This document shows, piece by piece, positions 18,901 through 59,300 of a stretch of DNA of 64,000 nucleotides (positions are counted from its first letter, which is position 1; the number at the start of each line of letters is the position of its first letter). The notes beneath the pieces are model-generated. The model made no database searches. It saw only the letters and a list, made by a program, of their open reading frames with translations, and was not told the origin of the DNA. A program made the translations under genes and the position numbers. This DNA is from an uncultured Planctomycetota bacterium (GTDB lineage: Bacteria > Planctomycetota > Planctomycetia > Isosphaerales > Isosphaeraceae), in contig CAWGMQ010000006.1 in assembly GCA_963823665.1 (NCBI GenBank), positions 480,001 to 544,000 on the forward strand, in the 5' to 3' direction.

Positions 18901-19947
18901 GGGACCCGGCGTGTCGAGCTGCCCCAAGGCTGTGGCTGTCTCGTGGTCGACGATCACAGCATGCGCGTCCTCGCCGGCGGATCGCAGGGGGAATTGTCGG
19001 CGCTGGCACTACCCGATCTGACCGTCGTCCACCAATTCGCCAATGCCCATGATGGAGAGATCCTGTCCGTTGGGTTGAGCCCGGATGGGCGACTGCTGGC
19101 CACGAGTGGTCGAGATAGGCGAGTCGTCCTACGAGACGCAGGGACGTTTGCGCCGTGGTTCACATTCCCGACCTGGACTGGCCTGGTCAAGGATCTGGCC
19201 TTCGATGCGTCGGGCCGCTGGCTTGCATTCGCCGGAGCCGATTCTGACCTCGCACTCTGGGACCTGCACGCGCTGCATCAGGGACTCGATGCCGCGGGTC
19301 TCGCCTGGGACCAGCCGTCGCCCGCCATCGTCCCTGCATCGGGGTTCACAACGGAGGACGAGCGGCTTCGGCCCAGCGTGCCGGTCATCGGGCCCGAGAA
19401 GACGGACGCGGCGGCATTCGAGCAGGCTCGCCGGCTCGTCCAATCGGGCGTCGGCGCCGCCGAGAGCGGCCGGTTGGCCGCGGCGATCCGCGATCTCGAG
19501 CAGGCGCGAGACCGGCTACGGACCTTGCACCAGGCCATTCCCAGCGACGGTCAAGTGGCCAGCGAGCTGGCCCTCGACCTGGGCGTTCTCGGCAGCACTC
19601 TGAGCCGCGAGCATCGTAATACGGACGCACTCGAGGCCATGCAGGAGGCTCGCCAGGTCCTGGACGCCATTGTCCAGCCCACCTTCGCGGATCTGTACAA
19701 CCTCGCGCGTGTCTGCGCCAGTCTCACGACCCTGGTTGAGACAGGACGAGGGAGGCCGACCTTCGCCGAGCGTGAGGCCTTGGCGCGTGAAGGGGTGGAA
19801 GCGCTCAGGCGATCCCTGGCGGCCGGCATGTCCTATTTCGGCCCAATGGATCGCGACCAATGGCTCGATCCGTTGCGTAATCGACCTGATTTCCGCGCCT
19901 TGATGCTTGACAGAGGCTTCCCCCGCGACCCGTTCGCTCACCCGTGA
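15971..19947 (+). CDS. Ser/Thr protein kinase with a TM helix, WD40 repeats and a C-terminal TPR-like helical region; frameshift near 16512
   Basis: GEGGMGTVY, VALKVI, IHRDLKPGNIL, DFG, YMSPEQ, SDVYALG; hydrophobic FIAALGGILTGVLVLATVASLLAV; many FSPDG/LWD repeats; C-terminal DQWLDPLRNRPDF. The frameshift is resolved by comparison with the adjacent paralog (ARLELLA). Confidence 0.9.
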
Positions 19948-20003
19948 CCATTAAAGCAGCGTTGGGATTCCGCGAACTCGGGTAGAAAAGAGGCAGCACG
20001 CGA

Positions 20004-23000: not shown

Positions 23001-23540
23001 ATTAGCTCCGTTTCGTTCAGCGGCGATGGGCTGCTGCTGGCCTCCGCGAGCGCGGATCGCACGGTCCGCATCTGGGAGGTGGCGTCGTCGAAATGCGTCG
23101 CCGTGCTGACCGGGCACACCGACGCGGTCTTCTCGGCGGTGTTCCATCCGGACGGCAAGCGGCTGGCGTCTGCCGGCCGCGACCGGTCGATCTGGCTCTG
23201 GGACCTGGCGAGCGGACAGGAAGTGGCGCGCCTCGAGGGACACGCGAACTACGTCTTCTCACTGGCGTTCAGCCCCGACGGCACGAGCCTGGCATCCGGC
23301 TCCGGCGACGGTACGGTCCGGATATGGGACACCGAGTCGCCGGCGCTGCGATATCAGGCCCGCCGAGAGGCGGAGGCTATGCGGCCCGAGGCGGAGCGGT
23401 TGGTTGCACGCCTCTTCTCCGAGCTGCATGAGCCGGAGCTGGTTGTTGGCCGTTTGCGGGGGGATACCGGGCTGAGCGACCTGATGCGGCACATGGCGAT
23501 GCGGGAGGTCATGCGGCGGGGGCAGGAGGCGGCGCCGTAG
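20004..23540 (+). CDS. Ser/Thr protein kinase with a TM helix and WD40 repeats
   Basis: Complete Hanks motifs (GEGGMG, IHRDLKPGN, DFG, SPE), TM segment ALVAAAAGIFAALVVGTAVSILFAL, and canonical GH...FSPDG...WD repeats. Confidence 0.95.
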   Translation: MTRDDERPPVNDLFAPRADPTAERVEALFQQAAELDPAQRGAFLEQQCAGDGELHAAVEDLLRFDAEVESDPDFLPSPVAPARATFPIAAEPGLPAFIGRYRILRRHGEGGMGTVYEAEQDHPRRTVALKVIRAGGATAELLSRFRHEAEILARLQHPGIAQVYEAGIGVDGRPFFAMEFIRGMTMDEHARNRGLDPRARLELLAKVCDAMQHAHDKGVIHRDLKPGNILVDDSGQPKVLDFGVAHITAAELFSTAGRTQAGQLLGTLTYMSPEQIAADPAGLDRRSDVYTLGVILFELLAQRLPYQLDQLPGHEVARVIQEQEPSRLGSINALYRGDVEIIVAKALEKAKTRRYASAGDLASDIRRDLRGEAIQARPASALYQIRKFTRRHKALVAAAAGIFAALVVGTAVSILFALRTAANARVADENARVAKERERAATYESYRARIAAAVAAISRHDVADAASQLGAAPEALRDWEWRHLHARLDDSIAIFPASAGEAQFLIGDQKGIRIARLARESLRLGDLDGKELWERSFPSEANVLDHPPLLTRQGLRLFADGRETGAATVGLPKDVPQNTGMLNVLDDLGRVQTQLRGPGVTHTELMAVSADGSRLAVVWQGPKQWIFTVYDAESGKPVATSAQDIASTWALAFSPDGTRLATGGEDGVTRLWDTSTGMMTILCEGHTRKVFSVAFRPDGLRLVTSSADGTVRQWDSATGREVLAPYDRHTGEVLTAKFSSDGELIASAGTDRTVRVWRASNRQDQGVLQGHIGDISDLAFVGDGHRLASVSYAPRRGSVAHHDGTVRLWEVGSQGAASVLRGHKLYVYPVAYSPDGQWIASGDWDNKVFLWDALTMEHIASLPHSGNIRALAFSPDSSWLVAGTAMDDSLSIWDVTTARRRNKLKGPGGDVVQAIAVSPDGAHIAAADSVGAVSIMEAATGAVVDSFRMVGSASIAKKSLAYSPNGRLLAGTGEDGTQIDIRDTQTRRRSGRLTGHTDAISSVSFSGDGLLLASASADRTVRIWEVASSKCVAVLTGHTDAVFSAVFHPDGKRLASAGRDRSIWLWDLASGQEVARLEGHANYVFSLAFSPDGTSLASGSGDGTVRIWDTESPALRYQARREAEAMRPEAERLVARLFSELHEPELVVGRLRGDTGLSDLMRHMAMREVMRRGQEAAP

Positions 23541-34484: not shown

Positions 34485-37400
34485 CTAGGCTTGCCGGAAG
34501 CCCGGCACGAGGCATGAAGCCATCCGGGATGGATTGACGATCGACTGGGCGCGCATCCAGGCCTCGGCCTGCTCGACCATCGCGCGGCCGGTGTCTCCGC
34601 CCCGCAGTTGACCGAGGTGATGCCGCGCCGAGGCGGCGAAGAGGCCCATGTCTGCTATCTCGAATCGCTGTACAGCATCGGCCAGAAGCCGCTCAGCTCG
34701 CACGGTATCGCCCCTGACATTGGCCACAGCGGCCCTGATTCCCTGGGCGTGGGCCCGCGTCCAGGGCAATTGCTGGCGATCCAGACGGCGAGCGGATTTT
34801 TCTGCATGACGGAGCAATGGCCCGGGCCCGGCCGAGACCGCCGCCATCGCAACGGCACAGCGCCCTGCGTGCTGGATCACGTCGGCCTGGACCTGCTCGA
34901 TCCGCAACAACAGCGACGACTGCAAGAGCCGCTCGGTCTCCTTGATCCGACGCCAGGCGGCGGCCGCATCACCGGCGTACGAGTCAATATAAAGACTCCC
35001 ATAATAAAAATTGAGATGCTGGATGTGAAAACCTTGATGCGACCATTCTCCGAGCGCCTGGCGGGCGAACCGGCGGGCGCCTTCGACGTCGTCAAGAGCG
35101 AGGGGGATGAAGGCACCGACATAGGGCCCGGGCGTGGCCAGCATGTAGCGATCGCCGCGCTCGCGCGCCTCGTGGAAGATTTCCTGGCAGCGAGTGCCGA
35201 GCTCGGCGAGCCTCCCGAGCGACCACAGTGACCAGAGGGCGAAGATCCGGGTCGTGTCCAGCTCCCAGATGACGCCCGTGCATCGATCACGGAAGATCGC
35301 TTCGGCGCGGTCCGCGAATTCGAGTGCCCGGCGGTAACGGCCAATCAGGAACTCGGCCGCGCCGGCGGAGAGGCTGGCCATGCCCAGCGCATGAGGGTTG
35401 CCGAGCCGGTCCGCCAGGCTGGTGGCGGCTCGAACCAGCCTTTCGGTCCGGCGCCACACGGGCCGTCCCTGACAGGCAACGTGCACGGCCTCCCAACCCA
35501 GGGCCAGTGCAATCCGCGACGGTTCACCGGCCTCGAGCGCCAGCAGCAGGCTTCTTGTCTGGTAGTCGGCTCCCCGGATCACGTCGACGATGCTGATGCC
35601 GATGGCCACCGATCGAGAAATGTCGATCAGCTCAAGCTTTTCGCGTGGCACTTCGGCCTCGGCGCGCTCGTGGAAGCGCAGGCCGCGCAGCCGGAGGCGT
35701 GCGCGGCTCTTCAGAAGGCGCAAGAGTGCGCGGCGCGGCGTGCGCGGCAGGCTCAGTCCCACGCGGTCAAGAATCGCGCCGAAAGCAGAGAGACCCTCGT
35801 CAATGTGTCCGCTTACCAGGAACTGGTAGGCTGCGCGGCGCTGGAGCTCGATCAGCTCGAGCTGATCGGAGCCCGCGGCTGCCTCCTGGTAAACTCGCGC
35901 CGCTTCGACACTGCGACCGACGTTGGCGAGCGCATCGCCCAGCCGCGTGCGAATCCGTCGCGCCGCGGCGGGGTCGGCCGGGCCCAGCTCCAGCGCGCGG
36001 CGATAGAGCTTGACGGCCCGATCAAAGGCCAGTGCCTCGCTCGCCTCGTCCGCCGAGAGAGCGTAGTAGTGGCCGGCGCTCGACTGCTCACCGGCCCCCT
36101 CGAAGTGCACGGCCAGCGTTTCGGGATCCGCCCCTCCGGCCTGATCCAGCTCGGCGGCCAGACGTCGATTTACTTCACGCAAGCGGTCGGCGTCCAGATG
36201 GTTGACCACTGTCTCCCGGATCCGGTCGTGATAGGTTTCCACCTCATCAAGCGATCCCAGGCCCGTACCTCGGATCAGGTGTTGGGCACGCAAGAGTGTG
36301 AGCCCGGAAAACCCCTGATTGCCCAGATCGGCAGCCTTGCAGGCGATCGCCTGCCGAAGCGGCTGGCCCGCGACGGCAAGGATCTCGAGTAGGGCCAGGG
36401 CCTCCGCCGGCAACCTGCCGATCCGCCGCCCGAGTACGCTGTCGAGACTGATCTGGGTCGACAGTGTGCCGCCTTCGCCCAGCTCGCCTCCCTCATCGAG
36501 GTATTCGACCAGCTCGTAGACGAAGTAAGGGCTGCCCCCCGACTCGCGCACGATCGTCTCGGCGAGGGCAACCGCGGCGGGATCGTCCTGACCAATCAAC
36601 CGCAGTGCCAGCTCGCGTCCCTCAGCGAGTGTGAGCGGCTCCAGCGCGACCTCGCGTTGGTCGCGTGGGGCAGAGCCATCGCTCTCTTGCTGCAGAACGA
36701 TGCGCAGGAAGGGGCTGAGCGCGGCGTATTCGCTCCGGTACGAAGCGACCAGAAGAAGCACCGGTGCGTCGGGTGGGCGCAACAACTCCGAAAGCAGAAG
36801 GGCGCTGTCCAGGTCGCCCCACTGGAGATCGTCGATGGCCAGCACGAGCGGACGACGGTCGCCGATGCGCGCCAGCAGCTCGCGAAGCGCGGCGAAGGCC
36901 CGCCGCCGCAGCTCGAGGCGGTCGAGCGAGGTGTGAGGGCGGCTCGGCGCTTCCGCCACGGCCTCCACTCGCCGCAACACGGGGAAAACTTGAGCAAGCG
37001 TCGACATGTCCCGAGGAATGAGGGCATCGGCCTCACGCCGGGACAGCCGGCGCAGGTAGCGCGAAAGGGCATCGATCAACGTGTCGACCGCCTTGTACGC
37101 CACCGACTCCTGTTCATAGCAGCGCCCGGTCAGGATGACTGCGTCGTCGCGCTCGAACAGCCCCTCGAGGAATCGCTGGATGAGGGAGCTCTTGCCAACG
37201 CCCGAGCGGCCGTGAACGAGCACGGTCACCGTTCCGCCCTGGCACGTGTCCTTGAATGCACAGTCGAGCGCGGCAAGCTGCGGCTCGCGGCCCACGAACA
37301 ACCGGCGCAGAGCGGCCATCCGCGACGATTCTCCCGCGCTTCCTCCCAGCCGTCGCAGGATCTCCTCGCCCGATGGACGTTCACGCGGGTCTCGCCCCAG

Positions 37401-38543
37401 CAGATCCATGCACAGCCGGTCCAGTTCCTGGGGGACATCCGGAAACAGCGACGCCGGCGAAGCCGGGTCTGTTCGCTGTTTTTCCATGAGGACCTTCAAG
37501 AACTTGCCCTCGTGCGGCAAGCGCCCCGAGAGTGCCCGGTAGAGCATCACACCCACGGCGTACCAGTCAGTTGCCTCATTCACGGGGCAGCCCGCGGCCT
37601 GCTCCGGAGCCATGTAGGCCGCCGTTCCGACGATGTGCCCGTCCGTCGTCTCCGGGTCTGCCCGCGCATCCACGTTCGTGGACAGTCCGAAGTCCAGAAG
37701 GACCAACCGGCCCTGCCGCGTCACCAGCACGTTCGACGGCTTGATGTCCCGGTGCAGCCTCCCCTGCCCATGCAATTCGGCCAGCACCTCGGCCAACTGT
37801 ATGAGTGCCGCCCGAAGGCGCGCGTAGTCCGGGCGCACGGCGGATAGTCGAACCGGCTCAGCCGGCGGGACGAGCGCCACCGGGTCAACCTCCGTGCCCG
37901 GCAGGGGGGATTCGGATTCTGAGCCGCCGACGGTCGACTCGACTGGGGCGGATCCCGCACGCGGCGGGGACGACGCTTCCGGGTCGAATTCGGTCGAGCC
38001 GGGTCGCGAGGCCCCGGGCCCCAGTCGATCGGTCTGATCCAGGCTCGCGTCGAGACCAGCGCCGGTCGCCTCGGTCCGGGCCGGCCGTGGAGCAAACTCG
38101 GCCTCGGTCGGCGGCGGGCACGCGCCGCCTCCCTGCGCCGGCAAATCTTCGGCCGCCGGGTCGCGCTGAGTCAATCGCCCCGCCCCTGGGGCATCCGTCT
38201 GGCCGAGCGTGTCATCCGCCGGACCGCTGGGCTCGGGGCAGACGTACTCGAGAAAATCCACGCCTTCCACCAGCTCCATCGTGAAGAACCACTCGTTCCC
38301 CTCCGAGAAGAGCTCATGAAGCCGCACCAGGCCGGGATGGGTCATGTCCGCCAGCGAGCGGAACTCTCTCTTGAATCGATAGAGCGAGCTGGCATCCAGC
38401 CGGAGGATGGTCTTGAGCGCAACCCGCTCGTTCCGCTCGCTGTCGAATGCCTCGTACACCACTCCCATTCCGCCCGCGCCCAGGCGCCGCCGGATTGTAA
38501 ACCTTTGCGTACCCGTGAATGTGTCGAGTGGGTTCTTGTGCAA
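34485..38543 (-). CDS. Ser/Thr protein kinase fused to an AAA/P-loop ATPase and a helical-repeat C-terminus (no TM seen)
   Basis: LGAGGMGVVY, VALK, LHRDIKPSNVL, DFG, YMAPEQ; FVGREPQL, Walker A GRSGVGKS, Walker B LVLAIDDLQWGD, SGGSPYFV. TTG start is uncertain. Confidence 0.92.
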   Translation of the reverse strand: MHKNPLDTFTGTQRFTIRRRLGAGGMGVVYEAFDSERNERVALKTILRLDASSLYRFKREFRSLADMTHPGLVRLHELFSEGNEWFFTMELVEGVDFLEYVCPEPSGPADDTLGQTDAPGAGRLTQRDPAAEDLPAQGGGACPPPTEAEFAPRPARTEATGAGLDASLDQTDRLGPGASRPGSTEFDPEASSPPRAGSAPVESTVGGSESESPLPGTEVDPVALVPPAEPVRLSAVRPDYARLRAALIQLAEVLAELHGQGRLHRDIKPSNVLVTRQGRLVLLDFGLSTNVDARADPETTDGHIVGTAAYMAPEQAAGCPVNEATDWYAVGVMLYRALSGRLPHEGKFLKVLMEKQRTDPASPASLFPDVPQELDRLCMDLLGRDPRERPSGEEILRRLGGSAGESSRMAALRRLFVGREPQLAALDCAFKDTCQGGTVTVLVHGRSGVGKSSLIQRFLEGLFERDDAVILTGRCYEQESVAYKAVDTLIDALSRYLRRLSRREADALIPRDMSTLAQVFPVLRRVEAVAEAPSRPHTSLDRLELRRRAFAALRELLARIGDRRPLVLAIDDLQWGDLDSALLLSELLRPPDAPVLLLVASYRSEYAALSPFLRIVLQQESDGSAPRDQREVALEPLTLAEGRELALRLIGQDDPAAVALAETIVRESGGSPYFVYELVEYLDEGGELGEGGTLSTQISLDSVLGRRIGRLPAEALALLEILAVAGQPLRQAIACKAADLGNQGFSGLTLLRAQHLIRGTGLGSLDEVETYHDRIRETVVNHLDADRLREVNRRLAAELDQAGGADPETLAVHFEGAGEQSSAGHYYALSADEASEALAFDRAVKLYRRALELGPADPAAARRIRTRLGDALANVGRSVEAARVYQEAAAGSDQLELIELQRRAAYQFLVSGHIDEGLSAFGAILDRVGLSLPRTPRRALLRLLKSRARLRLRGLRFHERAEAEVPREKLELIDISRSVAIGISIVDVIRGADYQTRSLLLALEAGEPSRIALALGWEAVHVACQGRPVWRRTERLVRAATSLADRLGNPHALGMASLSAGAAEFLIGRYRRALEFADRAEAIFRDRCTGVIWELDTTRIFALWSLWSLGRLAELGTRCQEIFHEARERGDRYMLATPGPYVGAFIPLALDDVEGARRFARQALGEWSHQGFHIQHLNFYYGSLYIDSYAGDAAAAWRRIKETERLLQSSLLLRIEQVQADVIQHAGRCAVAMAAVSAGPGPLLRHAEKSARRLDRQQLPWTRAHAQGIRAAVANVRGDTVRAERLLADAVQRFEIADMGLFAASARHHLGQLRGGDTGRAMVEQAEAWMRAQSIVNPSRMASCLVPGFRQA

Positions 38544-38656
38544 CAGACTACATCCGCGGGAAGGACGGTGAAAGGCGGCGGGTCGGCCGAGCGATGAATC
38601 TCCGGCGGCAAGTATACCCTGGGAAGGAGTCTGTCCGCGAGGAAACCGAGATGTGA

Positions 38657-41600
38657 TCAGCGTACGGGGGCGAAGACGTCCTCCGGCAGCTCGCTGGACG
38701 GGCCGGCGAGGACAGCTTCGGCCTCGGTGGAGAACTGAAGCAGCTCGGCGGCTTTAATCCCATCAAGGTTCTTCGGCTCTCTTTGCCAGCGCGCGGCGCG
38801 ATCCAAGCTCTCGCGGGCCTGGTCGCCATGTCCGAGCCGGTGGTGAGCCATGGCCTGGAATAAGAAGTCGAAGCCGTCGAGCCGGCCGCGGTTGGCAGCG
38901 CGGCTGCGCTCGAGGATGGCAATGGCCTCGGCGTAATGGCCCGCCCGGTACAGGACGACGCCCATCGTGTTGAGGTACGTGCCTTCGCTGGGATGCAGCT
39001 CCACGGCCCGTCGGGCGAGCGCCACCGCGCGGTCAAGATCGCGCCGCGCCACGGGACCGTTGGCCAGCGGCCAGGCAAGGTTGTTGCAGCAAAACGCCAG
39101 CGATTGCCGGAAAACCCACTGCTCGGGTTCGAGGGCCACTGCGGCCTCCAGATCGGCGCTCGCGGGCTGGTACTGCTTCATCCAGCGATAGACCGTACCG
39201 CGCACGGCCCGGTAGTGGGCGTCGTCCGGTCGCAAATGGATCGCTCGCGTCAGGTCGTCGATGGCCTCCGGGTAGCGTAGCAGAGTGGCGTACGCGTGAG
39301 CACGATGATGGAGAGCGTCGGCGTCGTTGGGCTCGTCCATGAGTCGCGCCGTGTACCGCTCGAGCAGGACTGCTCCGCGGTCGTCGAAGTGGCGGTCAAG
39401 CCAGGGAAGGAAGCCGTAGTTGACCCGGAGCGGCGTGAGGAGCGCTAAGGATGCACGGGCCGGGTCAAGGTCGGAGTAGGCCGGCGCGTCCCAGTCGAGG
39501 TGCATGCCGGCGAGTTGCTTGCGGATGGTGCGCAGGTCCCAGACGTGTACGGCCGGACCATCATCGGTGGTCACCACGATCCGCGAGCCGTCGGGGCTGA
39601 AGGCGGCCCAGCCCTGGCACAAATCAGGGCTTTCGAGTCGCGCCAGCGTGCGGCCGGTCTCGGTCTCCACGAGGCGAAATATCTTGCTGTCATCCTGGAC
39701 CACCATCAGCCGCCCGTCGGGGGAGAAATCATAGCCATGACCGCCGATCTGCCTCGCCTCTCGCCAGGTGCCGACTTCCCAGAGCCGGCAGGGCGAATTC
39801 TCCGTCATCAGCCATTTCCCATCAGGGCTGAAGGTGACGCCCCCCGAACCATAATCGAGGGGAAGGTCGGCGACTTTTTGGAAATCGGAGGTCCGCCAGA
39901 CCTGGGCACCGCGACTCTCGATGTGGGTACCGGTCGCCAGCCATTGCCCGTCGGGACTGACGGCGACCCTGCGGCAGTCCACCAGCGGGCCCACACGGGC
40001 TGAGAGTTCGGGAGTCGTGACATAGGCATAGGTGTAGTCGGCCTTGGCCACGATCCGGCCCGACCGGTCCTGCGCGATTCCACAGTATCCCAGCGGCAAG
40101 GCAAGCCCGCGCGGCGGGCCCATGCCGGATTCGCCGCCGTCTGAGTCGAGCCGGATCGGCCACCGATTCACGCCGAGCGCGCCACTGGTGATCAAGTCAC
40201 CGGAGGAATCGAACATCACGTTCCACGTGGTGCCGATCGCCGCGAAGGCAAGCTCGGTGCCACGGGCCAGATCCCATAGCACCACACCCTGATCGGTACC
40301 GACGGCGAGCAGCCGGCCATCATGCCTGATCGTCGGGCGTTGATAGTCCATCTGCCGGCCGGAAATATGAGCGAACGTCCGGTATTCCAGGGCCGGGTCG
40401 ACCTGGTACGTGGTGAGTTTATCCTCGAGCGAAACGACGACCCTCCCATCCCGGCTCATTTCGGGGTTGGATTCGCCGGTCACGGTCAGCCAGTTCCGGC
40501 CCAGGATCGCATCCCACAGCCATAGTCGCCCTTCCCAGCCGTTGCTGATCAGCAGCGTGCCGGCGGGGTGGAAAGCGACGTGCACGCCCTTGGCGCTGTG
40601 GCCTTCCAGGGTCGACGTGCGTATGCCGCCCGCGGCATCCCAGACCATGATCTTTCGATCATCAAACGGGATAGCCAGCGCGGTGCCGTCGGGACTCCAC
40701 GCGACGCCGGCCGGGTTGGGTGGGAGGGCGATGGTGCTGACCTGCCGGCCCGTTTCCGTCTCGAGGATCACGCAGGCGGGGCCGTTTTTTTCGTCATAGA
40801 GGACCGCGATCCGGTTGCCGTCCGGCCGGATAGCGAGGCCCCGTGCCGGTCCGGTCCCTCGGTGCTGCCGGGCGATCCGACGGTTCGCGAGATCGTGGAC
40901 CACCAGCGCTCCATCAGTACGGGCCAGGATCAGCCGCCGGCCATCCGGGGCGAACTGGATCGCTCGCACGTACGATATCGGTCCCGGATCATTGAGCGCC
41001 AGGCGCGCCCGTCGATGTCCCGGATCGTTACGGCTCCGCCGGGTTGATGCCCGGCGGCGAGATAACGGCCGTCGGGGCTGAAGCCGTACAGCCTGGCATC
41101 GCGCACGCCCCGGGCCCGGAACTGGTCGATTTCCTGGTCATCGAGAGCGCGGCGGACCGAGATCGCTCCATCGCGGAACCGCAGGGCGTACCGCGTCATG
41201 GTCGGATCGAAGCTGGTCGCAATGACGTCTCGGGGCCGGTGGATGACCCTGCCGGCCGGCTTGAGATCCGGCAGCGCCAGTGCGGCAATCGCCAGGTCGC
41301 GTAGCGAATCGCGCCGCGCGGCCGATCCCGTCCCCGGGGGAAGGCCCTCGAGCAGATTCGCGGCCTGGCTCACGGCCTTGAGGGTCTCGAATCGCTGGCC
41401 TTGCCGGCGGCTGAACAGCCCGTTTCGGGCTTGCGCCGTGTAGGCGTCGACCGCTCGCCACTCAGCATTCAGAGCCACGTCGTCCGAGCGGGCGCGCTCG
41501 AGCCTGAGCGCCTCGGCCTGGTTCCGAAAGACGATGGCCGCAGCCATCGCCGCGGCGGCCAGGACGATCATCAAGAGCGCCGCGGCGATGTTGGCGCCGG

Positions 41601-43009
41601 CCAGCCAGGGCTCGCGCCTGCACCAGCGCCAGAACCGCTCGACGGACGACACCGGCCGCGAGCGGATCGGCCGCCCTTCGACGAACCTCCGCAGCTCACT
41701 GGCCAGCTCGCCGGCCGAGCCGAACCGGTCAGCCCTGTCTTTGGCGATGGCCTTCAGGACGATCGTCTCCAGGTCGCGCGGGATGTTTCCTTCGAGCTGC
41801 CGCGGCGGCGGTGGCGGGTCATTGCGGATGCGCTCGATCAGCCGGATCTGGTCGGTCTCCTCGAACGGCGGCCGCAGCGCCAGCAGCTCATACAGCGTCG
41901 CGCCGAGAGAATAGACATCGCCTCGACGTTCCGACGTTCCCCGGAATCGCTCCGGCGCCATGTAGCGGAGCGTCCCGACCAGCTCGCGCGATTGCGAGGG
42001 GTCGGTGCTCTCCTCGAGTTTCGCCAGGCCGAAGTCGGTGACCCATATGTTGCCCATTGCGTCCAGAAGCAGATTCGACGGCTTGATGTCGCGATGCAGC
42101 ACGCCGCGACGGTGGGCGTACTCCAGGGCGTCGGCCACCTGCACGCCGAGTCTGGCGATCTCGCGGTAGTATCGCAGCTCACGCAAGCCGCCCAGCGATG
42201 ATGATTCGAGCGTCGACGGCTGACGGCCATCGCACTCTTCCAGCCCTGGCTCCCGATCGCCCGCGCGCATCGCATCGGCAGCCGGAGCCTCCTCGCCGCC
42301 GGCGGTGCTCGCGGTGGTCGTGAGATCCGGGTCCGTCGCCGCGGCGACGCGACCGGTCAACAGTCCTCTCGCGGCGGCCGTGGCCGGGATGGTGATGATC
42401 CCATCGGGGACGATGAGACTCTCGGCGTGCGTGTCGTCTTCACGCAGATGACGGATGTCGGCCAGGACACGGTCCAGGGGCTGACCCTCGATGAACTGCA
42501 TGGCGTAATAGCAGACCCCATCCTGTTCGCCGTAATCGAAGACGCCGACGATATTGGTATGGTGCAGCCCGGCCGCCAGGCGGGCCTCGGCGTGGAACCG
42601 CCGCGAGTATTTCGAGTCGGCCCGGAACCGCGGCTGCATGACCTTGAGCGCGACCCGGTTCTTGAGCGATTCGTGCTCGGCCTCGTACACGACGCCCATT
42701 CCCCCGCCGCCGACCCGGCGGCGGATGAGGTAGTCACCGAGTCGTTCCGGCGACGGGCTAGCGTCTCCGGATTCGCTCGCGAACGTGCTGTATCTCGAGG
42801 GTGGTGTGAGGCTGCCGCTCAAAGTCGCCGAGCTGCTCCAGCTCGACCAGCGCCGGAATCAACTCGCGAATCCGTGCGGCCAGCTCCGGGTGGCGTGCCA
42901 TCAGCTCGGTCAGTGCCGGCCGTTCTCCACGACGGAACCGGTCCAGAAACGACTCGACGACCGGTCCCAGGGGATCGTCGTCCGGCGGTTCCATCGATCC
43001 GCCATTCAT
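38657..43009 (-). CDS. Ser/Thr protein kinase with a TM helix, WD40 repeats and TPR repeats; frameshifts near 42760-42830 and 41002
   Basis: ATG 43009 overlaps the sigma stop (ATGA). N-terminus VESFLDRFRRGERPAL...HPELAARIREL; GGGGMGVVY, LHRDIKPSNLL, DFG, YMAPE; TM WLAGANIAAALLMIVLAAAAMAAAIVF; SPDG/WD repeats; TPR-like segments such as YLNTMGVVLYRAGHYAEAI. Confidence 0.9.
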
Positions 43010-43638
43010 GACCATTCCTCCTTCGGCCCGTCCGGCAAGACGGAGAGAATGTCCTTGAGGCGTCCCAGGGCCCGCAGGTAGCGCTTGGTAGCCGCCGACT
43101 CGCCTAGCCCGAGCACCCGCGCGCACTCGCCGTTGGTGAGCTGCTCGAAGTGGCGCAGGACCAGGACTTCGCGGTCGATCGCTTCCATGCGCTCGAGCAC
43201 TTCCAGCAAACGTCGCTTGCGCTCGGCCCGGATGGCCACGTCGCTCGCCCGGGTGTCGCGGCCCAGAAGCTGGGCCGCGAGTGCCGCCGAGCTCGCCGCG
43301 GGAACCGTCGCGGTGTTGATCGAAACGTCACGACCGGCATCTCGCGATTTCGCTCCGAGCTGCTGGCGGTGCACGATCTGCAACCGCTGGAGCGTGAGGA
43401 ACCTGAGCCACAAGAACGGCGGCATCCGATCAGACTGGTCTGTGTATTCCGGTCGCCGCTCCGTGGCCTCAAGGAATGCCTCCTGGATCACGTCCGAAGG
43501 GTCGATGCGGCCGCGCAGCCGCTGGTCCAGCCGCAGCGCGACCATCCGCCGCAGGCGCTTGCGGTGCGCCGATAGAAACTGACCCCACCTGGCGCGGTCC
43601 TCGCCCCTGGAGTCGCCTGCGGCATCGTTCGTGTCCAT
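43006..43638 (-). CDS. ECF RNA polymerase sigma factor (planctomycete TIGR02984-like, kinase-associated)
   Basis: HRKRLRRMVALRLDQRLRGRIDPSDVIQEAFLEA, FLWLRFLT, DREVLVLRHFEQLTNGECARVLGLGESAATKRYLRALGRL; translationally coupled to a kinase. Confidence 0.92.
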   Translation of the reverse strand: MDTNDAAGDSRGEDRARWGQFLSAHRKRLRRMVALRLDQRLRGRIDPSDVIQEAFLEATERRPEYTDQSDRMPPFLWLRFLTLQRLQIVHRQQLGAKSRDAGRDVSINTATVPAASSAALAAQLLGRDTRASDVAIRAERKRRLLEVLERMEAIDREVLVLRHFEQLTNGECARVLGLGESAATKRYLRALGRLKDILSVLPDGPKEEWS

Positions 43639-43644
43639 GATGGT

Positions 43645-43683
43645 TAAGACTGCGCGCGGACACCGATTCGGGACAAGAAAAAA
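43645..43683 (-). promoter_or_regulatory. Candidate autoregulatory ECF promoter TTTTTTC-T-TGTCCCG-N13-GCGCAGT-CTTA
   Basis: The same elements and spacing recur at 47205..47242. GCGCAGT ends 10 nt before the sigma ATG and there is no Shine-Dalgarno sequence. Confidence 0.65.
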
Positions 43684-43836
43684 GCCGCATGAGCATTTTC
43701 TCAACAATATTATCAAATTGCGACCTGAATCTCGCTTGCTTGTCTGGCTTCGGTTCTCTCTCAGCAGTATGCTCTAGCGCGACCGCGCTTCGGCCGGCGG
43801 AGCGAGGGACATTCACCCGCGGCGTGGAGCATCGCC

Positions 43837-46525
43837 ATGAACGAACAACTCGAGCCCGGCCTGTCGCTGCCAACGGAACCGAACGAAACCGTCGACGTGA
43901 TCCCGGACGATCGAACCACACCGCCCACCGAAGAAATGCCGCCGGAGGGGCCGAAATCTCGCGAGCCGCGCGGCGCACGAATCGGGCCGAACCTGCCGGG
44001 CTACGAGATCCTCGAGGTGATCGGCCGTGGCGGCATGGGGGTCGTGTACAAGGCACTGCATACGCGCCTCGACCGCCTGGTCGCTTTGAAGATGGTGCTG
44101 GCCGGTGCCCACGCCTCGCCCGAGGAGCTCGCGCGGTTCTCCATTGAATCGCAGGCTGTCGCGCAGCTCCAGCATCCGGGGATCGTCCAGATCTACGAGG
44201 TGGGCGAGCATGATGGCCTGCCGTATTTCTCGCTCGAGTTTGTCTCCGGCGGCAGCCTCGCGCACAAGATCGGCGGAAAGCCGCAGCCGACGCGCGAGGC
44301 CGCGGGGATGGTGCACGAGCTCGCCCTGGCCGTTCGCGAGGCGCACCGGCGCAACATCATCCACCGCGACCTGAAGCCGGCCAACGTGCTCCTGACCCCG
44401 GACGGACGGCCCAAGATCACCGACTTCGGCCTGGCCAAGCGATTGGACTCCGACTCGGAACAGACCCACACCGGTGCGATCATGGGGTCGCCAAGCTACA
44501 TGGCCCCCGAGCAGGCCTGGGGCCAGACCCACGAGATCGGACCCCGCACCGACGTGTACGCCCTGGGCGCGATCCTCTACGAGATGCTCGTCGGCCGCCC
44601 GCCGTTTCAGGGTGCCTCGCCGATCGAGACCATCGAGCTGGTCCGGACCGAGGAACCGGTGCCTCCAACCCGCTTGCAGCCGAAGATTCCCGTCGACCTC
44701 GAAACAATCTGCCTGAAATGCCTGCAGAAAGATCCTGCCAGGCGGTATTCCGACGCGAATTCACTTGCCGAAGACTTGCAACGATTCCTTGAGGACAGGC
44801 CGATTCTGGCACGTCCCGTGGGGACCGCCGAGCGACTGGCACGATGGTGCCGCCGCAACCCGAAGGTCGCCCGGCTCACCGCGACGGTCGCCGGGCTCCT
44901 GGTCCTGGTCGCCGCCGTGATGACCTACGCCGCCGTTTCGCTCAACCGGGCGAATGGACAGCTCGAGGCATCGATTAAAACCGAGTCGGCCGCGCGGAAG
45001 GCGGCCGAGACTAGCGAGCACGCCGCGCTCAAGGCGCGTGACGACGAGGCCGTTGCGCAAGGCAGAGAGCGAGGCGAGAGCGAAAGCCGAGAAGCTCGTC
45101 GCGGTCGCCCTGCTGCTGAACAGGAACGCACTGAATTCCACGCGGACCATCAGCGTCTTGACCCTCAAGCGGCTTCGCGATTTCCCGGGCAGCCAGGATC
45201 TGCGGGATGAGCTGGTCAGGACGTCGGTGAAAGAACTGCACGCCAACATGGAAGGCATGGACCAGCTCGGAGCCGTCGGCGCCCACGACAAGGAGGCGGC
45301 GGCGACAGCCACCCGGACGCTCGCCGGGATCTACCAGCAGGCGGCAGGACTGATGGATGATTTCGGACGCTACGACGAGGCCATGCGGTATCTTCGCCAG
45401 ATGGACGACCTGGCCGAATCGCTGGCAGCGAGCAATCCCGGACAGATCCAGGCCAAAAGGCTCCTGGCGATCAGCAAGCTCACGATCGGCCAGTTCGAGA
45501 TGAACCGGTTCGGCGACTCGAAGGCCGCGCTCAAACACCTTCAGCAAAACCTGGAGCTCCGCCGGGAGTACCTGGCAGCCAAACCGGGAGACGACCCGGC
45601 CAAGGATGGGGTCTGCAACGCGCTCGGTGAGCTCGCGCGGGTCTGGTTGAAGCTGGGGAATCCCGGCAAGGCGAGCTCCTACTACAAGGAGGAGATCAAG
45701 CTGCGTGGTGAGATCGGGGTGAAGCTGGCCGGGCAAATCGAATTCCGCCGTCAAGGCGCCGGCCTCGAGGAGAAGCTCGGCGACCTGTCTGTCGAGCTTG
45801 GCGACCAAAGCTCCGCCAAGGACCATTACGACCGCGCGCTCGAGCTCCGCGAAGAGATCGCCAGGCAAAACCCCGGCCACGACCAGGCACAGCGCGACGT
45901 GTTGCTGTCGTTTAACAAGCTCGGCACATTCTACCTGCTCCACCGCAAAAACCCGGCCACGGCCCGGGACTTCTCCGAAAAGGCGCTCGACGGGTTCGTG
46001 CAGCGGCTCAGTGCCGAGCCGGCGAGCGTCGGGGCCAAGCAAGACCTCGCCGCGACCCATTACTTCGTGGGGACCGCCGCCCTCCGCGCAGGCGACCGCA
46101 TGGCCGCCGATCGTCACTACAGCGAATACCGAACGATCTGCGAAGGGCTCGCCGGCAACCCGAAGGCGGAGCTGATCATTCGCGACCTGATGATTGCCCG
46201 CGCGCGCTGCGGCGAGCACAAGATCGCGTCCCAGACCGCAGAGGAACAGATCAAGTCACCCCCGCTCGACGTGCGGGTCTATTACTATGCCGCCTGCGCT
46301 TTCTCCCTCTGCGCCGGCGCCGTGGCCGAGGAGCCGGCCTCGCCGGAGACGCAGGCTCTTGCCAGAAGTTATACCGAGAGCGCCTTCAAGTCGCTTCGCC
46401 TGGCCCTCAAGGCCGGCTGGGAGGGCGTGGTCGACGTCGAGACCGACCCCGATCTCGACGCGATCCGCAACGCCCCCGGGTTCAATGCCATCGTCGCAGA
46501 GTTCCGCAAGGCCGCCGGCAAGTGA
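43837..46525 (+). CDS. Ser/Thr protein kinase with a TM helix and TPR-like C-terminus; frameshift near 45058
   Basis: GGAG RBS; IGRGGMGVVY, VALKMV, IHRDLKPANVL, DFG, YMAPEQ; TM TATVAGLLVLVAAVMTYAAVSL; helical repeats; C-terminal YYAACAFSL...DPDLDAIRNAPGF. Confidence 0.9.
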
Positions 46526-47204
46526 CGGCCCACGTTGAGTTCATTCCGGCTTAATCATGCCGTTTCGTGACGTTTTGAAGCTTGCATTTTTATTTCCGTC
46601 GACTTGAAATCTTGAGCGGCAAAACGTAGACTCGCACTTGTTTTGCACACGTAACGATACTTTTCTTACGTCGTCTTCGTTGTTCCGGCTGATATCCAAC
46701 GCTGTCACCGGTAGAACAACGTTCTCTTCTTTTATACCTCGGGGCCAAGGCGGCCACGAATTTCGACCGACCTGGATCGTGCCGGTTGCGAGCCGGGCTT
46801 GCCTCTTTGCCGGATCGCGGCCGTGTGATCGATATCGTCAAACGGATTGCGTCGGACAGAGTCGCGTCCGCCGCGCTCTTCAGAGAACCGGTCCCGGCGT
46901 CTGACCAGGGACCGATCGTCGTCGAGGAACTGGGCGGGGCTCAGGGAACTGATGAGCCGCGTCTCGGGTGCGAAGTCACAGAATCGCTGATGCGATGTCA
47001 CAATCGCACGCGAAACGGACATTGACCTCCAGGTAAGGCGGCCAGCAGGAAATAGATTACCGGGGATCGAAGCTTAAAGTAGCTGCGTTCTGCCACGAAA
47101 GGCAAGCACCCGGAAAAAGCGATTTTCTGGTGTACGGAGTATTCCGCCGCGCGGTTAAGAGTTCGTGGGATTGTTTCACGGAATGTCTTCCGAGGGAATT
47201 TCGA

Positions 47205-47242
47205 TTTTTCGTGTCCCGGCAGTACCCCTTTGCGCAGTTCTA
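47205..47242 (+). promoter_or_regulatory. Candidate ECF promoter TTTTTC-G-TGTCCCG-N13-GCGCAGT-TCTA
   Basis: Matches the motif upstream of the ECF gene at 43645..43683; about 110 bp upstream of the giant gene ATG, on the same strand. Confidence 0.65.
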
Positions 47243-47351
47243 GCAGTACACAGTACTCCCGATCGGAACAGCAACGAGACTGAACAAGAGATCATTGACG
47301 TCGAGATTGCATCGTGGTTTTACCTCTCCTCTCGAAGCAGAAGGTTGTACG

Positions 47352-53300: not shown

Positions 53301-56300
53301 AACGTCATCTCGGGGAATACCGGCGCAGGAATCACCATCAGCGATACCGGTACGTCCGGTAATGCGGTCGAAGGCAACCTCATCGGCACGAAGGCCGGCG
53401 GCACCTCAGCACTGGCGAACAGTACCGACGGGGTGCTGATCCAGACCAACGCCTCGAGCAATACGATCGGCGGCACCGCGGCCGGCGCGGGCAACGTCAT
53501 CTCGGGCGACACGACCAACGGCGTGGAAATCACGGGAACGGGAACATCGAGTAACGTCGTCGAGGGTGACTACATCGGCACCGACTTGACGGGCACGGTG
53601 GCGATCGCCAATGCCACGGGCGTCGAGATCGATACCAGCGCCTCGGGCAACACGATCGGCGGCAGCGCCGCGGCTGCGCGCAATATCATTTCCGGGAACT
53701 CGTACGGGGTCACTCTGAATGACACAACGAGCGACGCTGTCGAGGGTAACTTTATCGGCACGGACCTGACGGGTTCAATCGCCGTTGCGAATGGCATCGG
53801 CGTTCTGATCTGGGCCAGCGCCACGGGCAACACCATTGGCGGGCCCGCCACGATGACCGGCACCGCACCGGGTAATGTGATTTCAGGCAATTCGGGACCG
53901 GGCATTTTCTTCGACAACAACGTTGCCAGCACCGGTGACCTGGTTGAAGGAAACCTGATCGGCACCAATGCCGCCGGCACGGCGGCGCTGGGCAACGGCG
54001 TCGGAAACGGCGGCATTTACATCCTGAGCGATGGCAGCGCCACGCATGAAACGATCGGCGGCACGGCGGCCGCCGACCGCAATGTGATCAGTGGCAACAA
54101 TGGCGCGGGCATCGACATCCTGAACGACAACAGCAACCTGATCGAGGGCAACTACGTCGGCCTCGACATCACGGGCGCGTCGGCGGTACCGAATCTGGAC
54201 CAAGGCATTCAAATCGTCGGGTCGAACGATAATACCGTCGGCGGCACGGCGCCCGGCGCCGGCAATGTCATCAGCGGAAACCGGTACAACGCCACTGCGG
54301 GCCAGCAAGTGGTGATCAACGACGAAAACTTGGCGACGCAAACCGCTTCAGGCAACCTCGTTCAAGGGAATTTGATAGGAACGAATGCGGCTGATACCGG
54401 TCTGCCGTCGGGAATGAGCTTCGACTACGACGGGACCGGTGTGGAAATCCTCGGCTGTGCCACCGGCAATACCATCGGCGGGACGACAGCGGGGGCCGCC
54501 AACGTGATCGCCGGCAATGCCACGGGCGTCTTTATTGGCTCCGTGGGATTTCTGGCTGGAGGTACAACTTCCGGCAACGTCGTCGAGGGGAACGATATTG
54601 GCGTCGAGGCGAATGGAACCACCGCACTGGCCAACACGGTGGGCGTCTTGATCCAGTCGGGCGCGGGCAATTCCTTGACCGACGACAACACCTTGGGCGG
54701 AGCCACGGCCGTGGCCGCGAACATCATCAGCGGCAATACCACATTTGGAATCGAAATCTCCGGCAGCACCGCGACCGGGAATGTCGTCGAGGGTGACTAC
54801 ATCGGCACCGACCTGACGGGCACTGTGGCGATTGCCAATGGAACGGGCGTCGAAATCGATACGAGCGCCACGGGCAATACGATCGGTGGTCTCACGAGCA
54901 CCGCCGGCACCGGCGCGGGCAACGTCATCTCGGGTAATAGCAACTACGGTGTCTGGGTCGTCGCCGCAACTTCGAACGCCATCGAAGGCAACCTGATCGG
55001 CACCGGCGCCACGGGTACGGTCGCGGTCGCCAATGGGCTTTTCGGAGTCAATGCCGATACGGGGGCCAATAACACGACCGTCGGTGGGACCGTCGCCGGC
55101 GCGGGCAATGTGATCAGCGGCAACACGAGCTACGGGGTCGTAATCAACTCGTCCGGCAGCCTCGTCGCCGGCAACCTTATCGGGTTGAATCGCGCCGGGA
55201 CCACGGCGGTGGCGAACCTGTCGAGCGGGATCAAGCTTGTCGGGGCGAACAACACCGTCGGCGGTATCACCGCCGTTGCCCGCAACGTCGTTAGTGGCAA
55301 CACGCAGAATGGGATCTTGGTCACGGGCGTCGGGGCGACGGGGAACCTGATCGAGGGGAACTACGTCGGTACCAATGCCGTCGGCAGCGCTGCCGTTCCC
55401 AACAATTCCGTCGCCTCGTACCGGGGCATCCTCATCAACTCCGGGGCCCAAAACACCACAGTCGGCGGCAGCACCGCCGGCGCGGGCAATCTCCTGTCGG
55501 GGAACCTCGGTTGGGGTCTTGAAGTCGACGGCCCAGTGACCGCCAACACGGTGATCCAGGGCAACCTGATCGGTACCGACGCCACCGGAACCTTCGCCGT
55601 CGGGAACGGCTTCAGCGGCGGTATCATCATTTACCGTGCGATTAGTACGACGATCGGTGGGACGACCGCAGCCGCGCGAAACCTCGTCTCGGGCAACCAA
55701 TCCGCCGGAATCCTTGCTGAAGGAACGGGCTTGTCCCAGTTGCTCATCGAGGGCAATTACATCGGTACCAACTCCGCCGGCAGCGCCGCGATCCCCAACA
55801 ACGACACCGGGGTGTACGTCGAGGATCTGGCGGCGAACGTGACGATCGGAAGTGCCGTGGCGGGCGGGGGCAACCTCATCAGCGGTAACGGTTACTGCGG
55901 GATCTATGTGACAAATCAAGATGGTGTCGGAGTCGCGACGAACGTCGTCATTCAGAACAACTCGATCGGCACCAACGCTTCTGGCACCGGCGCTATACCG
56001 AACCTCGCGGGCGCCGTCGGAGGAACCGGCGTGTACGCTGGTTCCGGGGTCATTATCTACAACGTGCCGAACGTCGTCGTTGGCGGATCTTCTGCCAACA
56101 CTCGCAACCTTATCTCAGGCAACGCGGCATACGGAGTCGCGATCTCCGGCTCCGCCTCCACGGGGAACCAGATTTTCGGCAATTTCATTGGCTCAGACGT
56201 CTCAGGCACTGTGTCGCTCGGTAACGCGACCGGCGTCATCATCCAAAGTGGAGCGACAAGCGACACCATCGGCGGCACGGCCGTCGGCGCGGGCAACCTG

Positions 56301-59300
56301 ATCTCCGGCAACACAACCTTTGGTGTTCAGATCACGGGTGCGGGCGCAACGAGCAACGTCGTCGAGGGGAACCTGATCGGCACGGGCATCACGGGGACGG
56401 TGGCAATCGCCAACGCCACGGGCGTCGAGCTCGATACCGGCGCCACCGGCAACACGATCGGCGGCACGTCGGCCGGGCGCGAAATCTCATTTCGGGGAAC
56501 CTCTCCTATGGCGTGTCAACCGATACCACCGCGGGGGCAAACGTAATCGAGGGCGACTACATCGGCACCGATGCGACCGGAAATGTCGGGTTGTCCGATG
56601 GGACCGGGATCGACATCGCCTCGGCGGGCAATACCATCGGCGGCACCGCGTCGGGCGCGGCAAACGTGATCGCCGGGAATGACGGCACGGGCTACTCCAC
56701 CGCCGGTACGCAAATATTCCTGGACACTTCCGCGAGTGACAACCTGGTTCAGGGGAATTACATTGGCCTCGGAGCCGACGGCCTTGCCCTGGCCGGCGCG
56801 ACCGGCTCCGGCGTGTATATCAACCATGCGACTGGAGAGACGATCGGCGGCGTCACGGCCGCGGCCCGGAACGTGATCTCGGGAAATTCAGGGGCTGGTG
56901 TTGAGATATTGGGCGGCTCCGACAACCTGATCGCGGGCGACTATATCGGCACCGATCCGACGGGCACTACAGCCATCGGCAACGGCCCACTGAACTCAAA
57001 CAATGACGTCGCGATCGGAGGCGGCGCGACGAACAACACCGTGGGCGGCACGACATCCGGCGCCCGCAACATCATCTCCGCCGGTGGATTCGGCGTCTAC
57101 GTCTTTGGTCCGGCAACGACGGAGAACCTCGTCGAGGGCAACTACATTGGCACGGACAGCACGGGCACCGTGGCCCTGGCCAACGTCGTCGGAGTTGGTC
57201 TCTCCTCGTCAGGTGGCGGCAACACGATCGGCGGCGCGACCTCCACGCCCGGGACGGGAGCGGGCAATCTCATCGCGGGTAACAGCGACCAAGCCGTGGG
57301 ACTTGGCTCGGAGCCCGACGGGGACGTGATCCTGGGCAACGTGATCGGTGGAGTTGCCATACCGGGCGTCGGCACGTCGCCGGAAAACTTGATCGGCATC
57401 GGGGTGGGGGGCAGCACCGGCTTCGAGATCGGCGGCACGAGCCCGCAAGACGAGAATGTCATCTCGGGCAACACGGCCTATGGGGTGGAGATCTCCGGCA
57501 GCTCAAACAGTCTTGTCCAGGGTAACCTGATCGGCACCAACCTCCCCGGAAGCTCTGCCGTGCCCAACCAGATCGGCGTCTTGATCGAGGGCGGCTCGAC
57601 AAACATCACGATCGGCGGCACCACCGGCTCGCCCGCCAACGTGATCTCGGGCAACACGATCTACGGGTTACAGATCACGGGTGCGGGCACATCGAGCAAC
57701 GTCGTCGAGGGTGACTACATCGGTACCGACGTCACAGGCGCGATGGCGATTGCCAACGGCACGGGTGTCGAGATCGAAGTCGGCGCATCGGACAACACGA
57801 TCGGCGGCCTGACCACGACGCCGGGCGCCGGGGTGGGCAACGTGATCTCGGGCAACTCCAATAACGGGGTCTACTTGAGCGATGCCGGAACGGCCTCCAA
57901 CGCCATCGAAGGGAACCTCATCGGGACCGACGCAACCGGGTCCGCGCCGCTGGGGAACGTGGGCGACGGCGTCGCCGTGGAGGCCGGCGCGACCGGGGCC
58001 ATCATTGGCGGGGCGACCGCGGGCGCGGGCAACGTCATCTCGAACAACAGCAACTACGGCGTCTACATCGACGCGAGCGGGGCCGTAGTCCAGGGTAACT
58101 TGATCGGCCTCGATTCAAGCGGCGTCAATGTCATGGGCAACTCTTACGGGGTCGGTATCGGTGCGAACGGCGTCACCGTCGGCGGCACGACCGCGCTCGC
58201 GCGGAACGTGATCGCGGCGAGCGCCGTGGACGGCGTCTTGATCGGGTCGAGCTCCGTCCTGGTCGAAGGGAACTTTATCGGGACCGACGCCTCGGGAGCT
58301 CATGCCCGGGGGAACAACCAAGGCATCGTCACCAACATCGGGGGCAGCAACACCATCGGCGGCACCGTGACCGGCGCGGGAAACCTGGTCTCCGGCAACA
58401 CCACCGATGGCATCGACTTGGATTTGTCCAACAGCAACCTCGTTGTCGGCAACTTGGTCGGTACAGACTCGACCGGAAATCTCCGGCTGGGCAACGAGTA
58501 CGGACTGGCGGTATTCGGGTCGAGCAACACAATCGGCGGACTGACCGGCGCCAGCGCCGGGAACGTGGTCTCTGCCAACCTCTTCGACGGCATCATCATC
58601 GCCTCGGGCACCGGCAACCTGATCGAGGGGAACGACGTCGGGACCAACGCGGCCGGCACCGCCGCACTGGGCAACGGGGCCTTGGGCGCCATCGATGTCC
58701 AGAGCGGCCCGAACACCGTCGGCGGCACGACCGCCGGGGCCGGCAACCTCGTCTCGGGCAACCTCTCGGACGGCATCATCCTCACGAGTTCCGCAAGCGC
58801 TGTCCTGGTTGCGGGCAACATCGTGGGCTTGAGCGCCTCCGGCAACGCCGCGATCGGCAATGTCCTCGGCATCGAGATCGACGGGTCGAACAACACGATC
58901 GGCGGCACCACCTCCGGCGCCGGCAACGTCATCTCGGGGAACACCGGCGCCGGCGTCGAGTTAAACGGCGCGGGGGCGTCTGCCAACGTTGTGGTGGGCG
59001 ATGATATTGGCACCAATGCCGCGGGCACCGCCGCCTTCGGCAATGGCAGCGACGGTGTGGAGATCACCAACAGCGCCACGGGCGACACGATCGGCGGCAC
59101 GACGGCTGGGGCGGGCAACGTCATCTCCGGCAACACAGGCGACGGCGTCGAGATCACCGGCACCGGCACGACCGGCAACCTCGTCGCGGGCAACTTGATC
59201 GGCACCGACTCAAGCGGCACGGCGGCGCTGGGTAACCTCGTTGCCGGCGTAGAGATCGACACGGGCGCCTCGGCCAACTTGATCGGCGGCACTACGGCTT

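Follow-up and report, generated by a model that had tools for sequence, protein, structure and literature searches.

A predicted promoter shared by a kinase-linked sigma factor gene and a giant repeat-protein gene in an Isosphaeraceae bacterium

What does it mean that one bipartite motif stands before two genes as different as a sigma factor gene and a giant repeat-protein gene? The question is raised by a 64,000-nucleotide (nt) stretch of DNA from an uncultured Planctomycetota bacterium of the Isosphaeraceae (GCA_963823665.1, contig CAWGMQ010000006.1, positions 480,001 to 544,000), called the window here. The sigma factor is of the extracytoplasmic function (ECF) type, and the motif is TGTCCCG-N13-GCGCAGT. 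We put the probability at about three in four that this ECF59-like, kinase-linked sigma reads its own autoregulated promoter and also the giant gene as a local target. The estimate comes from sequence comparison.

Two copies of one motif

The motif was proposed in a first-pass annotation of the window. Both strings are present as written there, and the T-tract upstream of each copy and the TA at equal offset were also seen. The boxes are identical at 14/14 positions. The 13-nt spacers differ, with 1/13 bases in common. The features are as follows.

43675-43649 (-): sigma copy of TGTCCCG-N13-GCGCAGT, by direct sequence reading
43676-43683 (-): T-tract preceding the -35 element of the sigma, from the sequence
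43669..43675 (-): -35 element TGTCCCG of the predicted sigma promoter, from the sequence, its 7/7 conservation in a relative (L040) and the family motif
43655-43652 (-): GCGC extension of the sigma promoter, positions -17..-14, from the sequence and the register of Todor Table S1
43651-43645 (-): -10 element AGTCTTA of the sigma promoter, positions -13..-7, from the sequence and the same register
43006..43638 (-): ECF sigma factor gene, 210 amino acids (aa), ATG at 43638, from TIGR02984 and Pfam sigma4
47212-47238 (+): giant-gene copy of TGTCCCG-N13-GCGCAGT, by direct sequence reading
47212-47218, 47232-47235 and 47236-47242 (+): predicted promoter of the giant gene, with -35 TGTCCCG, GCGC and -10 AGTTCTA, respectively; 22.3 bits
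47352..64000 (+): giant secreted-type repeat protein gene, from open reading frames and domain matches

In the window the exact pattern has 2 matches; each of 100 shuffles has 0. A genome scan, suggested with the motif, returned 2 exact copies in 16.46 Mb, both at this locus, and 0 for the backwards control. With only these two copies the motif is not a dispersed repeat. Both 7-mers are kept at both copies in L040. The spacer there changes at 5/13 positions for the sigma and 2/13 for the giant gene. Two other candidates were set aside. TGTCCCT near 43800 (-) is absent at that place in L040, and an 18.1-bit match at 22632 (-), antisense within a kinase gene, was taken as chance.

The promoter across the sigma family

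The training set contained 81 sigma matches from six relatives and the same genome. Unseeded expectation maximization on their upstream regions gave cTGTCCC...GCGCAGTT as the best motif. It scored 1264 bits; among 32 shuffled runs the highest score was 844. At 15 bits or more in a leave-one-out scan, the motif was found in 54/81 sigma upstream regions and in 9/81 on the opposite strand, where several of the 9 are divergent promoters.

The held-out test used 40 homologues from other genomes, at 53-79% identity and biased to close relatives, with a threshold of 12 bits and two boxes. The motif was present in 37/40, versus 4/40 on the opposite strand and 0/40 reversed. The spacer was 13 in 35 of the 37. 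The G at -15 was conserved in 35/37, and the C at -14 and the T at -11 in 37/37 each. The -35 element contained the T in 35/37 and then the C in 31/37. The upstream regions of related sigmas, which had been named as a check, thus yield the motif both de novo and in held-out sequences. This comparative support favors the earlier proposal of an autoregulated -35/-10 promoter. We consider it highly probable that the motif is the promoter of this sigma family.

The pan-ECF consensus is TGTAACC at -36..-30 and CGTCTAA at -13..-7, with spacers of 16-18 bp (Todor et al., bioRxiv 2020.06.23.168245, PMC7776599, SI Table S1). In this register the sigma copy reads TGTCCCG-N17-AGTCTTA. It matches the consensus at 4/7 positions at -35 and 5/7 at -10, with a 17-bp spacer. 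It departs from it in CC for AA at -33/-32 and in the conserved GCGC at -17..-14. Read this way, the true -10 element is AGTCTTA and GCGC is an upstream extension. An initial register, with -37..-31 as the RpoE equivalent, was replaced using Table S1. The motif had been called unlike the classic consensus. That description holds for the CC and the GCGC, and it does not hold for the remainder, given the matches and the spacer.

Counted from the G at -12, +1 is the A of the sigma's ATG (43638), and the sigma mRNA is predicted to be leaderless. Transcription of the giant gene is predicted to start at 47248 or 47250, which leaves about 100 nt up to its ATG. These register-derived positions agree with the start sites predicted in the first-pass annotation. 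In 31/37 held-out homologues the distance from the -12 base to an in-frame ATG is 11-14 nt. A pyrimidine-A step lies 11-13 nt from -12 in 35/37, versus 21 and 9 at control offsets.

The starts vary in layout. Many homologues (for example L082, L105, L108, L115 and L117) have the ATG at the predicted +1 and then a second in-frame ATG exactly 12 nt on. The same double-ATG layout is present in L123, L127, L131, L141 and L143. Other sigma homologues have a 5' end of AGGGG, which might serve as a ribosome-binding site. Starts with and without a short leader seem to replace one another among the sigma homologues.

The spelling varies slightly among related sigma promoters, and nearby genes tend to carry the same spelling. 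Covariation between sigma residues and promoter bases was scored in 51 rows (3/54 dropped for coverage), with an effective number of about 17. The top columns paired K185 with the 4th-6th base, T184 and E180 with the 7th base, and F80 with -11. In the combined 87 rows, N185 occurred with a non-C 4th base in 14/14 and K185 with C in 68/70. For the 7th base, K/D180 occurred with C in 26/27 and E180 with non-C in 47/49. A T at -11 was found with an aromatic residue 80 in 57/57 and with other residues in 5/30. The held-out rows gave N185 with (G/T)(G/T)A in 5/5, K185 with CC in 30/30, K180 with C in 8/8, D180 with C in 3/3 and E180 with G in 21/23. An alignment to SigD sigma4, carried over to RpoE numbering, places K185 at Ser172 and T184 at Arg171. 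The roles of Ser172 and Arg171 in specificity were verified by mutagenesis (Todor et al., PMC7776599).

Local targets and the giant gene

The training stretches (1.63 Mb) contained 74 sites of 16 bits or more, training sites included, versus 9 reversed. There were 54 non-sigma sites; 31 in loci with a scored sigma promoter were used and 23 were dropped. The 31 matched the spelling of the local sigma at 11.74 of 16, versus 10.01 permuted. At 17 bits, the 16 sites of the training loci gave a local match of 13.25 versus 10.56 of 16 (p<=0.0002), and the 8 sites of the held-out loci gave 13.50 versus 11.72 (p<=0.003). Nearby genes for LExRxL-type secreted proteins (Arg-rich N-terminus) had a site in 11/43 cases; the reversed control gave 0/43, and the opposite strand gave 5. 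Eight of these sites could be tested, and they agree with the spelling of the local sigma at 14.88 versus 10.24 of 16.

A direct link from the sigma to the giant gene had been proposed. The link is likely, as local copies match the local sigma at other loci. The claim is weakened in one respect: with about 30 close paralogues in the genome, and one of them (L081) having the same code residues, the link is probably not exclusive. The best reading is a small local regulon that would include the giant gene, with possible cross-talk from paralogues.

The giant gene is preceded by another site.

47129..47157 (+): second weaker site, GGTGTAC-N13-GCGCGGTTA; 16.5 bits

It lies 83 nt upstream of the main copy. 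L040 differs from it at two -35 bases and one spacer base. It is possibly read by an Asn185-type paralogue. It shares a CGATTTT flank and 7/13 spacer bases with the main site, which suggests that it arose by an old tandem duplication and was then retuned to a different sigma. A candidate distant target is a secreted DUF11 protein gene (L160 10306 (+), G000:C10:579405), preceded by a 23-bit TGTCCAG-N13-GCGCAGT.

Several results weigh against the sigma reading the giant gene as its local target, or against parts of the evidence for it. With 2 mismatches allowed, the window contains 2 motif matches versus 1.32 expected, which is no enrichment. With 1 mismatch allowed, the genome contains 9 versus 10 for the control, again no enrichment. 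Other relaxed genome counts gave little or none (14 versus 9, 5 versus 1), and no genome-wide weight-matrix scan was run. Since these two copies themselves supplied the pattern, and its relaxed forms are not enriched, the weight of the motif rests on the family-level tests. The relaxed counts are what a chance match or a dispersed repeat would give. The 0/100 shuffles and the held-out homologues, where the motif is in the right strand and place in 37/40 and reversed in 0/40, effectively refute that explanation, and we give it almost no credence.

The remaining points concern the targets, the code and the assembly. The held-out loci at 15 bits (20 sites) show no significant local matching (p=0.118), and the local-matching p-values are overstated because kin are not independent. 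No site was found before 32/43 of the nearby secreted-protein genes. The 20-kb L160 stretch has no sigma match near the DUF11-gene site. Independent-contrast tests on the 87 rows gave 1-3 pairs per trait with median p 0.5-1; none was significant, and the tests are underpowered. With so few independent contrasts the covariation is not separable from shared ancestry. The position of F80 depends on a sigma2 register that we presume to be right. F80 and E180 also differ from the residues given for these bases in Todor Table S1 (Arg76 -> -8). Frameshifts occur in both kinase genes and the giant gene (38657-46525 and 56225-56546) and in several paralogous sigmas, from assembly error or decay.

Two further results bear on the origin of the giant-gene copy. 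L040 conserves the whole region before the giant gene, which makes the conserved boxes there weak evidence. The spacers of local pairs are more alike than expected by chance (6.38 versus 4.59 of 13, p<=0.003). Some of the target copies may thus have arisen by promoter duplication, or the likeness may reflect a preference in the -35 flank. Both would fit a sigma copy that is a promoter and a giant copy that is a duplicated, co-inherited relic, or a motif that is the operator of another DNA-binding protein. The window pair itself, with 14/14 box bases and 1/13 spacer bases shared, argues against recent duplication. The geometry fits -35/-10/+1, and the covariation points to the sigma's own recognition helix. 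We regard the relic or operator as very improbable.

The motif may also be a family-wide promoter read by several paralogous sigmas. The giant gene would then integrate many kinase inputs and would not be a private target. The number of close paralogues and the common TGT...GCGC core are in keeping with this. So are the differently spelled second site and the 5/57 other sigma promoters that are no worse a match to the giant's copy than the local promoter is. L081 alone, among 25 paralogue rows of this genome, shares all four code residues. It is apparently frameshifted, and its own promoter has an 11-nt spacer. Local matching exceeds permutation, and ECF sigmas are reported to be sensitive to single base changes (Todor et al.). 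The pattern TGTCCN-N13-15-GYGCAGT has only 5 matches genome-wide versus 4 for the control. A shared promoter of this kind is unlikely, and it is the rival that we take most seriously. Reading by the local sigma is preferred.

The sigma-kinase locus and described systems

The sigma has a sigma2 plus sigma4 architecture, and a profile search gave no sigma3 match in it. TIGR02984 (Sig-70_plancto1) is its best family by far, at 152.7 bits, below the curated cut-off of 183.75. TIGR02937 (52.9 bits) and sigma4 are above their cut-offs. By these profile scores the sigma is of a sister subfamily of TIGR02984, of the Planctomycete type. Its sigma2 (PF04542) is divergent and was under the Pfam gathering score in 12/12 proteins checked. 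DPSD (S48) replaces DAED, and a serine is present at position 48 in 84/87 rows. The named homologues are planctomycetes, several of them Isosphaeraceae. The genome contains 78 matches to the sigma, 25 with E < 1e-40.

Two kinase genes flank the sigma.

38657..43015 (-): Ser/Thr kinase with one transmembrane (TM) helix, WD40 and TPR, from Pfam Pkinase, WD40 and TPR, reading frames and hydropathy
43837..46525 (+): divergent Ser/Thr kinase with one TM helix and TPR, frameshifted near 45000, from Pfam and hydropathy

The start of the kinase-WD40-TPR gene overlaps the sigma stop, and the two are predicted to be co-transcribed. At least two frameshifts interrupt it in this assembly, near 42830 and 40950. 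Its N-terminus has no Cys pairs, so it has no ECF62-type N-terminal zinc finger. A kinase motif lies within about 2 kb downstream of the sigma in 111/120 sigmas. In L040 (15047-19441) the +1 kinase gene is seemingly tandemly duplicated, with two blastn matches to window 38640-43040.

The divergent kinase-TPR gene lies between the two motif copies. Its best upstream site is 7.7 bits and does not represent a copy. The closest paralogous locus (L081 about 10220 (+), G000:C8:1374622) contains a divergent zinc-finger kinase-WD40 gene with a one-mismatch motif copy, unlike the divergent kinase of the window. In L083, L086, L111, L118, L119, L120, L126 and L190, two promoters with one spelling lie back to back on opposite strands upstream of the sigma, so placed that a divergent gene would be driven too.

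The giant gene encodes 3,064 aa up to 56546 and continues in another frame from 56225 past the window end. The protein has an Arg-rich N-terminus with an LEKRMML motif and Gly/Asn/Thr-rich, beta-helix-like repeats. It has domain matches to NosD, Laminin G and PKD. It may be located at the surface and act as an adhesin. The window also contains another giant repeat gene, on its left, and three further genes for Ser/Thr kinases (6125-14904 (-), 16552-23540 (+) and 34485-38543 (-)). No 15-bit site was found upstream of any of these genes.

ECF59 is described as a Planctomycetes group whose +1 gene encodes a kinase (one TM helix in s2, sometimes also TPR), with a "conserved TC in -35" (Casas-Pastor et al. 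2021, PMC7826278). A serine in the DAED position is reported for ECF59 (PMC8103513). The sigma resembles this group in its planctomycete homologues, its +1 kinase, a TGTC that fits the TC, and the DPSD serine, as judged by the group description. The linker of ECF59 is described as about 10 aa longer than usual; here Pfam coordinates suggest about 47 aa between the sigma domains. The published group text does not give the full bipartite motif, the -10 element, a leaderless start, targets or a residue code. ECF62 (s1/s2) also has a +1 kinase with one TM helix and a WD40 fusion. It was the first choice and was dropped for "ECF59-like, unassigned". The s1-s3 kinases carry an N-terminal zinc finger, whereas this kinase has no Cys pairs. 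ECF217 has a +1 kinase with one TM helix, and ECF217s1 has Planc_extracel proteins in its neighborhood. The promoters of ECF61, ECF62 and ECF217 are described as not conserved (PMC7826278). The Casas-Pastor pipeline demanded a Pfam sigma2 match (PMC7826278). This subfamily may be undersampled there, since its sigma2 scores poorly.

The promoter resembles those of the "local" ECFs of Todor et al. It is bipartite, with a 17-bp spacer, TGT at -36..-34 and GT at -12/-11. Also alike are the A start of a leaderless mRNA, the few nearby targets and the specificity at the Ser172/Arg171 equivalents. It differs in CC for AA at -33/-32, in the GCGC at -17..-14 outside their table, in the E180/F80 covariation, which is not in the table, and in the dozens of paralogues per genome. 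A -35 element starting with TGTC also occurs in ECF41 (TGTCACA), ECF37 (TGTCAACC) and ECF250 (TGTCAC/TGTCCCTTT) (PMC7826278), so the TGTC is not itself new as far as the published elements go. Those groups have other regulation and other -10 elements. No description of this promoter was found in the literature searched. Its absence from print is not established by that search, and the Todor compendium, which includes Planctomycetes, may contain the motif.

EcfP-PknT (ECF43, Vibrio parahaemolyticus) and EcfK-PknS are phosphorylation-activated, kinase-linked systems (PMC8999054). They resemble this locus in having no anti-sigma factor, a neighboring Ser/Thr kinase and a Ser/Thr in the sigma2.2 DAED position. 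DPSD here keeps two acidic residues, compared with STTA in EcfP, so dependence on phosphorylation is not assured; the promoter and targets also differ.

By analogy with such systems (PMC8999054, PMC8103513), the membrane Ser/Thr kinase of the locus may sense a periplasmic cue via its WD40/TPR domain. It would phosphorylate the sigma, most likely at S48 of DPSD, and so permit core binding. The sigma would then read TGTCCCG-N17-AGTCTTA with the GCGC extension, giving positive feedback on the leaderless sigma-kinase operon; here the basis is comparative. It would also read the matching copy before the giant gene, 3.6 kb away. The spellings of the paralogues may be set by a few residues (K185/N, E180/K/D, T184 and F80/W/L). 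A small local regulon is likely for each sigma-kinase pair, whose neighbors tend to share its spelling.

A broader proposal can be made tentatively, at somewhat less than even odds. The dozens of paralogues in each genome may form an insulated switchboard. Each would have a private promoter spelling that depends on three or four residues, two of which the published code does not include, and on an unusual GCGC extended -10. Each would control its own leaderless operon and one or a few neighboring giant or secreted surface proteins.

That ECF sigmas autoregulate, control local regulons and follow a residue code is an established principle. Kinase-linked ECF sigmas are among the largest planctomycete signaling families, and the group descriptions consulted offer neither a promoter nor a target that could be put to use. 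With a promoter defined, a start site predicted and a code relating residues to bases, these sigmas can be tested directly with a reporter. The same results point to a first candidate regulator of a giant gene, and the sigmas with their promoters provide a natural collection of near-orthogonal pairs. If the switchboard proposal is true, the regulators of many planctomycete giant genes would be readable from sequence.

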